A DNA stretch of 64,000 bases from a virus (Duplodnaviria > Caudoviricetes): IMG/VR virus record IMGVR_UViG_3300002220_000740, positions 28,246 to 92,245 of that record; one strand, 5' to 3'. Shown in pieces: positions 56,565-63,879 of the stretch (within the stretch, counting starts at the first letter, position 1; each line of letters begins with the position of its first letter). The position numbers and the translations under genes were made by a program. The notes beneath the pieces are model-generated. The model saw nothing but the letters and a program-made list of their open reading frames with translations, was not told the DNA's origin and searched no databases.

Positions 56565-58931
56565 CTATTTCTTCGCAGCAGGCTTTTTGGCAGCTGCTTT
56601 TTTGATGATTTTGTCCGCAGCAATCTTCTTTTCAGCTACATCCAACTTGCGGTTTTCTATCTTCTCCTTGGAGGAAAGTTCCTTCATGCGCATGTCTATT
56701 TCAGCCAGGCGTGAGGCACGCTTCTCAGCCAGTTCACCGGTGTTCTTCTCACGGTCCACACTGATGCGTTCGGTTTCGATCGAGTCTGTGGTGCCGTCGT
56801 TATCAGCATCATTGTCCCCGTAGAGCTTACCGTTGATATTGAGCAATGCAATTTTCTCCTTGCTCAGGCGGTCAAGTTCGTTCTGCTCGGCTTCGAATGC
56901 CTGTGCGGCTTCCTGTTCCTGTGCTTTAGCCTGGAGCATCATCTGCTGGGCTTCCTGTTCGGCAGCCATCTGCTGCTGTTCAAGTGCATCGGCAGCTGCA
57001 TCAACCTCGGCAAGCTTGAGCTTAATTTTCGAGAAGTTCTTGCTGTCCAGGATCTCGGCTATTGTAGAAGGCTTAGCCTTGTTCTGAGCGAACTCCAGGG
57101 CAAGAGATTTAAGTGCCTGCAGTTTATCCTGCTCTTCACCACTCTTGGTTACAAACACACCGTAGTCGGCGTTGCAGTAAACCTCGGGATTGATTTGCAA
57201 AAATGCCTGGCGGAAATCGCTGGTAGTGTATGAAGACTTCTTCCCATCAGCCCAGGCAATCTGGGAGATATCAACAAGACCCTGGAGGTCACGTTGCTCG
57301 ACGGTCTCGAACTTACGGAATAGATCCTCGGTCATTACCGTAGACTGGTACACCGCACGCTCGCTGGTGCCCTGACCATCGGAAGCCATGATGTTGCCTT
57401 TCCTCTGGCGCGAGATACCCATCATCTCTTCCCACTCGCCCTTGATGGCGGCAAGCAGCTCGAACTGAGCAGAGATGTATTGTCCCAGGGACATATCCAG
57501 AACCTGGAACTGGTTGAAAGCTACCCTCTCTTTATCCTTACCCTCAGCAGTTGAATCAATAAAAGCAAAGCCATTAGCGTCAGCATGATACATGAATTTT
57601 TCCTCATCCCAGCCGTGGCGCTTTGGTATCGTGTTGATCTCTATGAGGGCGATCTTATCTTTATTCTTGGCTATAGACAGTTCAAGCCGATAATGGAAAA
57701 TGTTGTAAAGCATCTGATAGGGCATCCCCAGGGAGACTACCGATACCGGATCTGAGTTCCTGTCAGAATAGATCCGCCCGTTGTAGGGGAGCTTGCACAG
57801 CGAAGGATTGTTCATTCGGTTGCGCTGCTCGGCTATGGGTTTGATGCCCAGGTAAATGTCCTTGTCTACACGGTAGCCTTCCCAGACCTCGTTGATCCAG
57901 AACCACTCGATCCACTCGCCGGCGGCGTGATCCACCTTGTAGATCTCCGATACGCGAGCTTCTTCATCGGTCCCTGTCACAGGGTCCTTGTAATGCAGGA
58001 TACCTTCCTTGCGGAAAGATTTCCATACACCGTGATAAACATCTATGAGCTCACCCGGGAGAGCATTAATCCCCGGTCGGTTAAGGGTGAACCCGTCTTT
58101 GGTGCCGGCATAAAAGCCGCTACCCGGGCTCTCAAGGTAATCTATTTGAGCAGGAGTGAGTTCATCATAGAACTTATCAACAATATCATTTACACTCATC
58201 TGTGCGCTACGCACACATGAGGGAAGATCTTCAATAAACCGGACGTTGGGGACGATCGGGTAGGAGAGGTCCATCGGGTTAACTATCTCATAGGATGGCT
58301 CCTCATGATCAATGCACTTATAAGTACACACCGTCCCCGTTACCAGCCAGTCAAAAAAGCCGGTCATCAAATGATCTGGAATCTCCAGGGCGGACATCAT
58401 GTAATCCAGGGCTTCACCGCCCATGATTGCACGCTGATCACGGTAGTTCTTGGCTACCTCAGCCTGTACCTCAGCAGGATCCTGCGTCTCCTCGCTGGGG
58501 ATACCCGTGGGAAGCCCGGCTTCGTTGACGGCATTGATGAACTGCTGCTGAAGGGTCTTCATCACAGCAGCCTGCTCAGCCTCTTCACGGCGTGTGACGG
58601 CATCGGCATTCTTTACAATGACCTGGTAGTTAAGGGGACGCTTGGTCTTTTCTCCCAGCAGGAGATCGACAACCGGTCGGATAATATTGTAGCTCCGCAG
58701 TCGTGCGGGCATCTTGTATGTCTTATTCCCTGCCTTGTAGGGATCGGTCACGTATTTGTATTCGACAGGATTGATCACTCCGTTATACCCGTCGTAATAA
58801 CTCTTGTACTTGGTATACTCCGTTGTGGTGGTGAACGACGCATTAATAATAGCATCGAGGGATTGCTCCCCCCACACCTTATCTTTGGCGCCCTGCGCAA
58901 CCTTCTGCTTCGGGAAATTAGGAATGCTCAT
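56565..58931 (-). CDS. portal protein
   Basis: YNIIRPVVDLLLGE, WINEVWEG, KLPYNG, GISRQRKG; directly after TerL. Confidence 0.9.
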   Translation of the reverse strand: MSIPNFPKQKVAQGAKDKVWGEQSLDAIINASFTTTTEYTKYKSYYDGYNGVINPVEYKYVTDPYKAGNKTYKMPARLRSYNIIRPVVDLLLGEKTKRPLNYQVIVKNADAVTRREEAEQAAVMKTLQQQFINAVNEAGLPTGIPSEETQDPAEVQAEVAKNYRDQRAIMGGEALDYMMSALEIPDHLMTGFFDWLVTGTVCTYKCIDHEEPSYEIVNPMDLSYPIVPNVRFIEDLPSCVRSAQMSVNDIVDKFYDELTPAQIDYLESPGSGFYAGTKDGFTLNRPGINALPGELIDVYHGVWKSFRKEGILHYKDPVTGTDEEARVSEIYKVDHAAGEWIEWFWINEVWEGYRVDKDIYLGIKPIAEQRNRMNNPSLCKLPYNGRIYSDRNSDPVSVVSLGMPYQMLYNIFHYRLELSIAKNKDKIALIEINTIPKRHGWDEEKFMYHADANGFAFIDSTAEGKDKERVAFNQFQVLDMSLGQYISAQFELLAAIKGEWEEMMGISRQRKGNIMASDGQGTSERAVYQSTVMTEDLFRKFETVEQRDLQGLVDISQIAWADGKKSSYTTSDFRQAFLQINPEVYCNADYGVFVTKSGEEQDKLQALKSLALEFAQNKAKPSTIAEILDSKNFSKIKLKLAEVDAAADALEQQQMAAEQEAQQMMLQAKAQEQEAAQAFEAEQNELDRLSKEKIALLNINGKLYGDNDADNDGTTDSIETERISVDREKNTGELAEKRASRLAEIDMRMKELSSKEKIENRKLDVAEKKIAADKIIKKAAAKKPAAKK

Positions 58932-61044: not shown

Positions 61045-61142
61045 CAGATCTTGGTTCTACTACCGGAAAAAACAGCATCCTCAAGGCTGGTAAGGAATGA
61101 CTTGCGGTATTCCTCTTCCTGCAGCTCGATCCAGGATTTCAT
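61044..61142 (-). CDS. 32-aa ORF translationally coupled on both sides
   Basis: MKSWIELQEEEYRKSFLTSLEDAVFSGSRTKI; ATGA overlap upstream and TGATG overlap with terL. Confidence 0.5.
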   Translation of the reverse strand: MKSWIELQEEEYRKSFLTSLEDAVFSGSRTKI

Positions 61143-62104
61143 AACTCGATGACTTTTCTCCTCTGACTCTCGGGTGAGTGTAGGACCTCGTGGAATTCGT
61201 AGTGTCCGTCTGAGAAGATGTCCACGTAGGCAAAGCCCCAGTGGACCACCTTTGTACACCGCAGGGTGCCGAACTTGGTCATGGCTCCCTGGAGCGCCGG
61301 CAGCACAACGGCTGTGCGGAACCCATCATCTATGCGGATGAACGTATGCGCATGCGAGCGTACCACGATGTCCGCGGTGGGGTTATGCTCCATCTGCGCC
61401 CAGAGATCACTCCAGAGTGCGTCTTTGAGTAAGGGGGTGGCAGCACCATAGGGCGTTGAAGACCCACCCACATGGTGCTTTACATTGAAGATAATGCCAC
61501 CTATGTTAAGAAGGTTCTCGGCATTGAGGATCGCCCCGGTCTGCTGGGCGATGTTGTACTCGAAGGCTTCCCCGTCGCCGGCATGGTACGGGGTGCCGTA
61601 GGAGATCACGTTGACGTTGGCTCCGACGGTATCCATCACTTTAACAGCCATGTCCACCTGGATATTCCGGTCGGTGGTGATAAGTTCGGTTCCCTTGCTC
61701 TTTTTACCATCCCCGTCAATGAGGTCACCGTTGAAGATGGCGTGAGTGAAAGGTTTCAGGCTGTCAATGGTGTTTATAAAGAAATTCCAGGTCTCCCTCT
61801 GGAACTCAGCAAAGGTCTTGTCTGCCACCGAGTCCAGGGGAAGCTGATATCCCTGTGGGGTTAGACCGGCTTTGTGACCGCAGTGAAAATCTCCGGCAAG
61901 CAGAACCCTGTATTTGGGACGCTCGCGGAGAGCTTCACGCATTGCCTGCTCGTTGTAAAGAGCAAAACTTATCAGTGTTGCTTCCCTGGAAGACAACTTA
62001 AGGTCCCGGATTATCTGAGGTTTTGTCAGTTCTGGGTGCATCCGCCTGTAGGCGAATATTTTAGCCAACTCAATAGGCGAGTATTTCTTTGGTACAGAAG
62101 CCAT
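61139..62104 (-). CDS. calcineurin-like metallophosphoesterase with an N-terminal HTH-like segment
   Basis: GDFHCG, NGDLIDG, GTPYH, KHH, SHAH. Confidence 0.85.
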   Translation of the reverse strand: MASVPKKYSPIELAKIFAYRRMHPELTKPQIIRDLKLSSREATLISFALYNEQAMREALRERPKYRVLLAGDFHCGHKAGLTPQGYQLPLDSVADKTFAEFQRETWNFFINTIDSLKPFTHAIFNGDLIDGDGKKSKGTELITTDRNIQVDMAVKVMDTVGANVNVISYGTPYHAGDGEAFEYNIAQQTGAILNAENLLNIGGIIFNVKHHVGGSSTPYGAATPLLKDALWSDLWAQMEHNPTADIVVRSHAHTFIRIDDGFRTAVVLPALQGAMTKFGTLRCTKVVHWGFAYVDIFSDGHYEFHEVLHSPESQRRKVIEL

Positions 62105-62106
62105 GG

Positions 62107-62703
62107 TTAGTTTTCAAATGCGTTAATATCTCCACCGCCACGGATCTTACGTCCGTTACTTTGCTCCGTCTTGACTTTCTCTTCCAGGTCCTCAAGTGTA
62201 CCTATAGCCTTTGGCAGCTTATCGGCAAGTACGAGGAGACTGGAAACGGATTGAACTATCTGATTAATTTCTTCAATATCAGAGTCTCCCCCGTCGGTTT
62301 CGGAAGGAGTATTAAACTTTATCAGGCGATCCTCAATGCGGGACCGCAGTGTTTCTATGACCTTGGTTGATGTCATCAGCGACTCACGGATTGCGATCAA
62401 GGTGCTGATCGAAGGGGTGCGCTGCAGCTCGTCGTACTTGCGTTCAGCGTCCATGACAGCCTTATCGGGCGTCCAGTCCGGGGAGAACCCCAGCTCGCGT
62501 TTGACCCTCTGGATGCGTTCATCCTTGGGGTAGATGACATATGGGGACTTGTAATCGGTGACAAAGTAGATGTATGCCAGCTCCTGGAACGAGCGTTTTT
62601 TATCCGGGGTCTTATCGCGCCGGATCAGAATGGCAAACTCCGGGATCATCTTGATCTCCGGAGCTATTATTATTTGGTGATTTTCTTCTGCGAAGACTCC
62701 CAT
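62107..62703 (-). CDS. conserved protein upstream of terL (putative terminase small subunit)
   Basis: ELAYIYFVTDYKSPY, helical, C-terminal KIRGGG; position in the packaging block. Confidence 0.55.
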   Translation of the reverse strand: MGVFAEENHQIIIAPEIKMIPEFAILIRRDKTPDKKRSFQELAYIYFVTDYKSPYVIYPKDERIQRVKRELGFSPDWTPDKAVMDAERKYDELQRTPSISTLIAIRESLMTSTKVIETLRSRIEDRLIKFNTPSETDGGDSDIEEINQIVQSVSSLLVLADKLPKAIGTLEDLEEKVKTEQSNGRKIRGGGDINAFEN

Positions 62704-62951
62704 ACCTTGGATTGTTTTTCGAGCCGGCGGTTAGCCATAGACTCATTGAGCTTCTTGAGCCTCCCGGGCTTGACCAGGAACTTGCCCAGGTAGGGCAGGC
62801 TGATGGCTTCAAACCCGCTGTGCTCAATTATGTGGGTGGCATACTTGCTCTGTGTACGCACGATGGACATCACTTCTTCCACCGGGGCGCCTATCTCCTT
62901 GGAGATCTCTCTGCATATCTGCAGTTCGAGGTCGTTCTTATCGTAGCCCAT
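62670..62951 (-). CDS. HU/IHF-like DNA-binding protein
   Basis: EISKEIG...ISLPYLGKFLVKP. Confidence 0.7.
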   Translation of the reverse strand: MGYDKNDLELQICREISKEIGAPVEEVMSIVRTQSKYATHIIEHSGFEAISLPYLGKFLVKPGRLKKLNESMANRRLEKQSKVWESSQKKITK

Positions 62952-63286
62952 TATGCGTCGACGAATTTGAATGCAAGTCCATTGCGGAAGTTCTCAGGAT
63001 CGAGTATCGGGTTGTAGGAGTATATTCCAAACTTGTTCACGTTCATGATGCCCTTGTCCTTAAACTTCTTTATGTAGTTGTTCAAAACCGCAACGTTTTT
63101 CATTTCGCACTTCTGTACGACTATGGCTTTGACTTCGGGGGAGCAGGGCTCCTTTGTGTTCACCGCCAGGAATGTCTCAAGAACCTTAAGTTCTTTGTCG
63201 GATAGTTTCAGGAGTCCGTTCAGGATCTCCAGGTAAGCGTTGATGTAACTGGTACCTTCTTTAATTCGGATGGTTAGTGTCTTCAT
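62951..63286 (-). CDS. winged-helix DNA-binding protein
   Basis: LSDKELKVL...LNNYIKKFKDKGIM...YSYNP. Confidence 0.6.
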   Translation of the reverse strand: MKTLTIRIKEGTSYINAYLEILNGLLKLSDKELKVLETFLAVNTKEPCSPEVKAIVVQKCEMKNVAVLNNYIKKFKDKGIMNVNKFGIYSYNPILDPENFRNGLAFKFVDA

Positions 63287-63560
63287 TATGCTGTTTTACA
63301 TTCTGCACTTTCCGGGCAAGCCGCTTCTTGAGCAGTCGCCGGATATTCTTAAGCTCGTATATGATGTGTTGGTTTTCGGCAGAGTAGCGGGTCTTCTGTA
63401 AATGATAGAAGCGTTCGATAAGCATGTCAATGACTTCCTCGTTGGTCGTGCCGTTACTGTACCCGCTTGGGGCAAGTTTTTCGGTGAACCTGATGAACTG
63501 TGTGCTCTCTCCATTGAAATTCGCAAGCTCGAATTCTGTCCCTTCTTTTATTACTTTCAT
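63261..63560 (-). CDS. Tad1-like (Acb2/Tad1 family) cyclic-nucleotide sponge, divergent
   Basis: IRF....NGTTNEEVIDMLIERFYHLQ....SAEN...L...R...R pattern resembles Tad1. Confidence 0.6.
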   Translation of the reverse strand: MKVIKEGTEFELANFNGESTQFIRFTEKLAPSGYSNGTTNEEVIDMLIERFYHLQKTRYSAENQHIIYELKNIRRLLKKRLARKVQNVKQHNEDTNHPN

Positions 63561-63710
63561 CTTCGCAGTATAAAATGTTGTATAGGGAACGAATATACTT
63601 GCTATTCAAAAATAAGCAGAATAATGTTCTGTTTAACAGGATCTATATAGACTTTTTATATACTGTTGATAAGTATTAGATTTTAAACGGAATAAAACAT
63701 AACTTTGGGT

Positions 63711-63739
63711 AAAGAAAAATGCCCCGAAAAGGGGGGCAT
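63711..63739 (-). terminator. terminator downstream of tRNA-Asp
   Basis: Minus strand ATGCCCC-CCTTTTC-GGGGCAT followed by TTTTCTTT. Confidence 0.75.
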
Positions 63740-63758
63740 CCGTACTTCTTCCGTACTT
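63739..63758. repeat. tandem 9-bp direct repeat (TCCGTACTT x2, 11-bp period)
   Basis: Copies at 63739-63747 and 63750-63758. Confidence 0.7.
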
Positions 63759-63796: not shown

Positions 63797-63804
63797 AAAC
63801 TCAG

Positions 63805-63879
63805 CGGTGCGGACGGGACTCGAACCCGCGACCCTCGGCGTGACAGGCCGATATTCTAACCAAACTGAACTACCGCACC
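63805..63879 (-). tRNA. trnD: tRNA-Asp (GTC), CCA not encoded
   Basis: GGTGCGG/CCGCACC acceptor stem, D-loop with GG, TCGGC-CTGTCAC-GCCGA anticodon arm, GGTTCGAGTCC T-loop. Confidence 0.97.

Follow-up and report, generated by a model that had tools for sequence, protein, structure and literature searches.

The locus examined here raises the question of whether a short open reading frame at the head of a phage gene string encodes a relative of Tad1, a sponge of immune signals, and, if it does, what such a protein might capture. The window, meaning the whole 64-kb stretch of DNA that was analysed, covers the final 64 kb of a virus record of 92,245 bp, and the DNA was obtained from hydrocarbon metagenomes that belong to a single study. 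The gene in question is the following:

63261..63560, minus strand: short gene of the Tad1 family, 99 aa, open reading frame with an ATG start

A first-pass annotation had described a 99-aa frame here without naming its strand and had read it as a divergent Tad1-like protein. The frame is present on the minus strand, and every motif quoted for it was found in the translation, which holds FIRF, NGTTNEEVIDMLIER, LQ, SAEN and KNIRRL followed by KKRLARK.

We collected 12 close relatives of the protein with identities of 57–84%, and 108 clusters of relatives in all (50% identity, E <= 1e-3), nearly all of which are 92–110 residues long and start at the same methionine; two long repeat proteins (P0039 and P0112) that matched only via many short stretches were left out of the set. 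A relative is encoded by 228 IMG/VR contigs, and a search of 185,579 species genomes with the alignment of closer relatives gave only five loci, every one of them on contigs of metagenome-assembled genomes (MAGs), so the short gene is confined to phages and prophages. Compared with its 83%-identical copy in L006, an unintegrated 92.5-kb contig, the gene showed a dN of 0.12 with dS saturated, and the terminase gene, compared likewise, showed a dN of 0.117, which is the same amino-acid rate. The gene is therefore under purifying selection and, given its close relatives, its 108 clusters and its spread over 228 contigs, is a real gene and not a chance frame.

Taken by itself, the query sequence matches phrog_2428, a PHROG family, at E 1.6e-6, and each of the 12 close relatives matches it too. 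This family is unnamed in PHROG, and its identity was worked out via Bacillus phage vB_BceH_LBC2, whose 123-aa protein is a weak tblastn match of the query; because that protein matches both phrog_2428 (3.6e-47) and CmTad1 (8KBB; 7.5e-21), phrog_2428 is the Tad1 family. A profile built from the 12 close relatives reached CmTad1 at E 0.0043, and a profile of 96 diverse relatives reached CmTad1 at 3.9e-11 and CbTad1 at 8.6e-9. When aligned by hhalign with 11 canonical Tad1 proteins, the family matched with 99.1% probability (E 6e-19) over 87 columns, pairing query residues 7–93 with canonical residues 33–122. The check by HMM and HHpred against the Acb2/Tad1 family, suggested in the first-pass annotation, thus favoured Tad1 by profiles and by hhalign, but the query itself missed Pfam PF24729 (Acb2_Tad1_hairpin), with no match at E <= 1, and scanning it directly against Pfam and NCBIfam produced noise only. 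PF24729 was matched by 7 of the 96 relatives (best 5e-9), and is carried by 20–30% of the members of protein-atlas clusters around the query.

In HMMER alignments, CmTad1 and CbTad1 display NG..NED/..SD, I.R/DRL, FQ, REN, QEC/EEA-L-MW and R...R, in agreement with the Tad1 pattern given in the first-pass annotation; the query's AEN aligns to REN, and its KNIRRL aligns to QECLMW/EEALMW. Two other kinds of hit were discarded. The top PDB sequence matches, dTor_12x31L and dTor_9x31L (E 4e-7), both designed repeat proteins, arise artefactually from the summing of 12 weak matches to one short GTT.EE-like motif, each with an individual E above 1000, and matches to MazF (E 0.08) were weak and covered one helix only. 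Our literature search for Tad1 in crAss-like phages found only unrelated fungal papers.

The predicted fold points the same way. An AlphaFold model built with a deep alignment reached a pLDDT of 95, with strands predicted at residues 2–5, 9–13 and 20–25 and helices at 40–57 and 61–96. This is the architecture of Tad1, in which an antiparallel sheet at the N terminus is followed by two C-terminal helices (bioRxiv 10.1101/2023.11.15.567273). In a Foldseek search of the PDB, ranks 1–20 were all Tad1 chains (TM 0.69 to 7uav, rmsd about 4 A), and the first match outside Tad1 had an E of 0.27 and a TM of 0.38; an earlier model from a shallower alignment gave the identical ranking with lower scores. 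VIA-align of this first model found Tad1 as the sole whole-chain match (Z 6.5 over 85 residues), the matches to LINE-1 ORF2p, Mediator and other helical hairpins being restricted to residues 37–99, and structural matches in BFVD were Tad1-type phage proteins. Profile, profile-profile and fold comparisons all bear out the description of the 99-aa protein as a divergent Tad1 homologue, which we regard as solid.

A homodimer was also predicted, as had been proposed for checking by AlphaFold multimer together with Foldseek. Its score was 0.81 and the best of three controls scored 0.00; 20 out of 30 proteins whose solved structures are same-chain pairs attained that mark, as did 1 out of 23 with single-chain structures, but the run used our own alignment and Tad1 dimers have already been solved, so the pass may reflect likeness or memory and not binding. 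Runs agreed in at least 94% of contacts, with a partner pLDDT of at least 86. The predicted contacts pair helices 1 and 1', helices 2 and 2', and strand 20–25 with its mate, and set the alpha1-alpha2 loop against the partner, just as has been described for Tad1 (10.1101/2022.05.03.490397). The 99-aa protein is accordingly modelled as an interlocked, Tad1-like homodimer.

To see which binding residues are kept, we took residue roles from bioRxiv 10.1101/2022.05.03.490397 and 10.1101/2023.11.15.567273. CbTad1 contacts gcADPR through 11 residues (H29, G55, R57, R78, F82, F87, N92, R109, R113, G120 and N122): F82 and R109 stack the adenine, the Hoogsteen edge of which is recognised by N92; the diphosphate is gripped by R57, R109 and R113; F87 supports the ribose, the hydroxyls of which are held by H29, G55, R78 and N122; and G120, in a lid formed by residues 116–122, makes a backbone contact. 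The F82A/N92A and R109A/R113A mutants lose binding of both gcADPR and 2'3'-cGAMP. Cyclic trinucleotides occupy a separate, hexamer-dependent site with R90 and T97 in CbTad1 (R88 and T95 in CmTad1), the hexamer is held by CmTad1 Q98, E99, M102, W103 and K106, and Tad1 without the hexamer no longer binds trinucleotides (10.1101/2023.11.15.567273). The equivalent positions in the query, mapped via HMMER and hhalign alignments with frequencies counted in the 96-sequence short family, are listed below.

CbTad1 R78: query R50; R in 93 of 96
CbTad1 N92: query N63; 91 of 96
CbTad1 R109: query R80; 91 of 96
CbTad1 R113: query K84; K or R in 89 of 96
CbTad1 F82, the stacking Phe: query L54; L in 83 of 96
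CbTad1 H29, the His of the beta2-beta3 loop: query T8; H in 29 of 96
CbTad1 R57: query A30
CbTad1 G120: query Q90; G in 40 of 96
CbTad1 R90 (CmTad1 R88): query A61; R in 10 of 96
CbTad1 T97 (CmTad1 T95): query Y68; T in 15 of 96
CmTad1 W103: query L76; W in 19 of 96
CmTad1 M102: query R75
CmTad1 Q98, E99 and K106: query K71, N72 and K79

Within the helices, conservation in the short family is highest at the counterparts of the CbTad1 residues that have been tested by mutation, and the GTTNEE loop (residues 37–42), the counterpart of the canonical NGVTNED beta4-alpha1 loop that closes over the ligand, is nearly invariant. N122 is possibly kept as query N92. Of the 11 gcADPR contacts published for CbTad1, six are changed or unmatched: the equivalents of F87 and G55 were not confidently placed, and the actual changes to the pocket are F82 to L54, the H29 equivalent to T8, R57 to A30 and, in the lid, G120 to Q90. 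The lid motif RGVEGT is invariant in canonical Tad1 and kept by about one third of the short family, and the query has N87-V88-K89-Q90-H91 in its place. Both the Arg and the Thr of the trinucleotide site are absent from the query (A61, Y68), as are the hexamer interface residues save for the Lys (K79).

These assignments alter the basis of an earlier suggestion that the pocket appears remodelled. The ligand-binding surface is indeed altered, but AEN and KNIRRL, on which the suggestion was built, lie outside the gcADPR pocket: REN contributes the Arg of the cyclic-trinucleotide site (CmTad1 R88, CbTad1 R90), and EEAxxW belongs to the hexamer interface (CmTad1 Q98, E99, M102 and W103; bioRxiv 10.1101/2023.11.15.567273).

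The query belongs to a short branch of the Tad1 family, about 100 aa in length, within which two subgroups can be told apart. Subgroup A, about a third of the branch, keeps H8, R84, R87 and the VEGT lid and often has R61, T68 and W76, whereas the query's subgroup B has none of these. The isoelectric point separates them as well, with a median of 9.1 in subgroup B (9.3 for the query) against about 5.9 in subgroup A and about 6.1 in canonical Tad1, and the added positive charge of subgroup B lies in helix 2 and the tail. Compared with a subgroup A protein such as P0046, the query shares the length of about 100 aa, the start and the core residues, but it is basic where subgroup A is acidic and is without H8, R84, R87 and the VEGT lid. 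Subgroup A genes are mostly found in other phage types, and the short family at large is spread over unrelated phage backgrounds; L093, a distant crAss-like contig with a 28% identical TerL (large terminase subunit), carries a subgroup A gene directly before orf198 and TerL. The family is thus mobile among phages, the region before TerL accepts Tad1-like genes repeatedly, and one crAss-like lineage has fixed one there.

Among characterised sponges, the nearest comparison is with CbTad1 (PDB 7UAV, 7UAW, 8SMD, 8KBE-H) and CmTad1 (8KBB-D), for which structures are solved, and also with SBSphiJ7 Tad1. Like these, the query is homologous over residues 7–93, combines a sheet with a two-helix hairpin, is predicted to form an interlocked homodimer, retains counterparts of R78, N92, R109 and R113 together with the beta4-alpha1 loop, and is restricted to phages and prophages. 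Unlike them (120–142 aa), it has 99 aa and is without the first 25–30 residues; it is also without the stacking Phe (Leu instead), the beta2-beta3 His, the R57 equivalent, the RGVEGT lid, the Arg and Thr for cyclic trinucleotides and the Trp and Met of the hexamer, is basic instead of acidic, and has its gene fixed in front of the packaging genes in a lineage of crAss-like Bacteroidota phages. Acb2 (anti-CBASS 2; T4 Vs.4 and PaMx33 Acb2) is likewise a sponge, similar in size and belonging to the PF24729 hairpin superfamily. It is all-helical, whereas the query has a predicted Tad1-type beta sheet. No Acb2 chain appeared in the query's sequence or Foldseek match lists, and a distant kinship is implied by the common Pfam hairpin family.

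A more distant case is PhiKZ gp184 (PDB 8Y6V chain I), of which the C-terminal 75 residues, about 152–226, match a Bacillus phage Tad1 at E 3.2e-7 and the short-family profile weakly (E 0.037). Unlike the query, gp184 is a 230-aa virion protein that is processed by the head protease. A Tad1-like domain is thus packaged inside the head of a jumbo phage, a likeness that goes unremarked in the PhiKZ capsid paper (PMC11297242).

The phage itself is crAss-like. Its TerL matches phrog_6681 at E 2.4e-134, it also has a 3,987-codon frame, and among cultured phages it is closest to the Flavobacterium phage FpV4 group, with 38.5% TerL identity. Going inward from the end of the phage, the features around the Tad1-like gene are these:

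63804..63879, minus strand: tRNA-Asp (GTC), found by ARAGORN
63717..63741, minus strand: terminator-like hairpin and T run between tRNA-Asp and the Tad1-like gene, in the phage arm of the attachment site
63561..63716, minus strand: promoter-sized AT-rich spacer of 156 nt, 5' of the Tad1-like gene
63607-63614, minus strand: Bacteroidota-type -7 box, TATTTTTG, 47 nt before the ATG
62951..63286, minus strand: orf111, conserved crAss-like gene, homologue of FpV4 gp04 (synteny)
62670..62951, minus strand: orf93, conserved crAss-like gene, homologue of FpV4 gp05 (synteny)
62107..62703, minus strand: orf198, homologue of FpV4 gp09, directly preceding TerL in most relatives (synteny)
61139..62104, minus strand: orf321, metallophosphoesterase-like, 321 aa, found only in the window phage and L006
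58999..61044, minus strand: large terminase subunit (TerL), phrog_6681
56565-58931: portal gene, next after TerL (synteny)

The 3' 41 nt of tRNA-Asp (63804–63844) recur at positions 125–165 of the record, at the left end of its 92 kb, and a gene for a tyrosine integrase at record 289–1446 adjoins this left repeat. The phage is thus integrated at tRNA-Asp, and the region at 63804–63879 is the attR junction of a prophage. In L006, with an integrase 80% identical, the integrase and Tad1-like genes diverge from a composite attP (L006:4395-6000) that joins the left-end arm, the tRNA core and a right arm with a terminator hairpin; the hairpin at 63717–63741 is also found in the attP region of L006. 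The tRNA content of the window is limited to the host tRNA-Asp, and in L006 ARAGORN reports a putative ochre suppressor tRNA of 69 nt (anticodon TTA) beside tRNA-Met (L006:1355-1423, minus strand).

The Tad1-like gene is the first phage gene inward from attR and heads a tight string of orf111, orf93, orf198, orf321, TerL and portal, in which the start of orf111 overlaps the 3' end of the Tad1-like gene by 26 nt. This layout is consistent with one transcription unit that would include the packaging genes. The -7 box of the spacer is kept as TATATTTG in L006 and may hint at reading of the string by the host RNA polymerase, although this is suggestive only; across the window, the promoter motif TAnnTTTG was not enriched (36 found against 35.7 expected). 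The order is widely shared: 77–80 of 85 related loci have the Tad1-like gene followed by homologues of orf111, orf93, orf198, TerL and portal, with identities across loci of about 58% for TerL and about 50% for the Tad1-like protein. Since orf321 occurs only in the window phage and L006, it is an insertion, an accessory gene of the region before TerL; it has GDxH, GDxxD and HAH-type motifs and weak PHROG matches to exonucleases and phosphoesterases. FpV4 retains orf111, orf93, orf198 and TerL as gp04, gp05, gp09 and gp10, with an unrelated gp03 in the Tad1 slot.

The gene had been called the first of a late operon, and this position is true of the window phage and L006. It does not extend to most relatives, since 40 of the 49 loci with enough upstream sequence have a co-directional frame of about 91 aa some 30 nt upstream; in the window phage, attP and the integrase occupy that side. 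The upstream frame is conserved where it occurs (e.g., L048:5695-5970, L060:5692-5970 and about 38 more loci) and is absent from the window.

With moderate confidence, we favour a dimer-based sponge for a nucleotide signal, in which the adenine/phosphate core is kept, the trinucleotide site is absent and specificity is probably altered. Two chains would interlock so that their beta sheets meet in a seam and their four helices form a bundle, leaving two pockets at the dimer interface that would be lined by R50, L54, N63, R80, K84 and the GTTNEE loop. These pockets may enclose an adenine- or phosphate-bearing immune signal and so withhold it from the host effector, candidates being a TIR-derived derivative of ADP-ribose or a cyclic dinucleotide. 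Ligand binding and an anti-defence effect are what we infer for the protein, and its ligand is probably not identical to that of the studied Tad1 proteins, judging from the loss of the second site, the hexamer contacts, the linkage-specific His and the Gly-containing lid. TIR and CD-NTase signalling both exist in the host phylum: among 301 genomes, an even sample of Bacteroidota (the phylum of a Chitinophagaceae MAG), 55 have a ThsB_TIR domain and 28 a CD-NTase domain.

Several properties sit uneasily with a sponge, namely the six gcADPR contacts that are changed or unmatched, the replaced lid motif, the missing PF24729 match of the query, the basic isoelectric point of the subgroup, which could indicate nucleic-acid binding, and the fixed slot in about 80 related contigs combined with a TerL-like rate, which is unusual for an arms-race gene. 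The basic charge and the fixed slot would suit the main rival, a repurposed fold, in which the protein serves as a nucleic-acid-binding or virion-associated helper of packaging or head assembly and sequesters no immune signal, a reading that we judge unlikely. It would account for the conserved position ahead of orf111, orf93, orf198, TerL and portal in 77–80 of 85 loci, for an amino-acid rate equal to that of TerL, for the basic helix 2 and tail (9 K/R in residues 59–99, pI 9.3, against an acidic canonical Tad1) and for the disappearance of the lid, the His and the hexamer residues, and the C-terminal domain of PhiKZ gp184 shows a Tad1-like domain in an inner-capsid vertex protein (PMC11297242). 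However, conservation is strongest on the pocket positions and the pocket loop, and the exposed basic stripe is weaker (K71 in 55 of 96, R74 in 31, R75 in 17 and K78 in 22). The unrelated gene that fills the Tad1 slot of FpV4, a phage with orf111, orf93, orf198 and TerL, indicates that the Tad1-like protein is not needed for packaging, and the wider family sits in unrelated phage backgrounds, a distribution that, by analogy with accessory anti-defence genes, speaks for the sponge.

A fully canonical Tad1, that is, a hexamer with six gcADPR pockets and two cyclic-trinucleotide pockets like CbTad1 and CmTad1, would agree with the family membership, the fold and the retention of R50, N63, R80 and K84. 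We find it highly improbable given A61 and Y68 at the trinucleotide site, the replacement of Q98, E99, M102 and W103 by K71, N72, R75 and L76, and the absence of the lid and the His. Hardly credible at all is a decaying remnant or chance frame with no function: the protein is about 25–40 residues shorter than canonical Tad1 and has lost several hallmark residues, but more than 100 clusters preserve an uninterrupted frame, the conserved N-terminus of which begins at the same Met, the fold is predicted confidently (pLDDT 95), and the selection data, with a dN of 0.12 and saturated dS, contradict this reading. Finally, there is a more specific version of the sponge, tentative and on balance doubtful, in which subgroup B, basic, without a lid and probably limited to dimers, would be a distinct Tad1-derived functional class that catches an undescribed signal and stands nearly fixed in front of the packaging module throughout a crAss-like lineage. 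If that were true, the signal might be a product of a Bacteroidota TIR protein, for instance, or an oligonucleotide of greater length and higher charge.

Tad1 is a large family, with 799 homologues in the work of Leavitt et al. and 1,587 non-redundant ones counted in IMG/VR (PMC12393519). Functional plasticity of sponges has already been published, and the present gene extends known biology and overturns none of it; what is new is a Tad1 relative of reduced length and basic charge that has neither the lid nor the trinucleotide site and has become fixed in a lineage of crAss-like phages. Sponges have previously revealed the signals that they capture, with Tad1 leading to the structure of gcADPR and MoTad2 to that of His-ADPR (PMC12393519). 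Because the adenine/phosphate core is kept, the rest of the pocket is rebuilt and conservation is strong in crAss-like phages of Bacteroidota, this branch of Tad1 offers a cheap, well-defined bait for the signalling molecule that these abundant phages would have to neutralise. The locus also shows that the place of a Tad1 gene can be a stable one in front of packaging genes, and not among early accessory genes.
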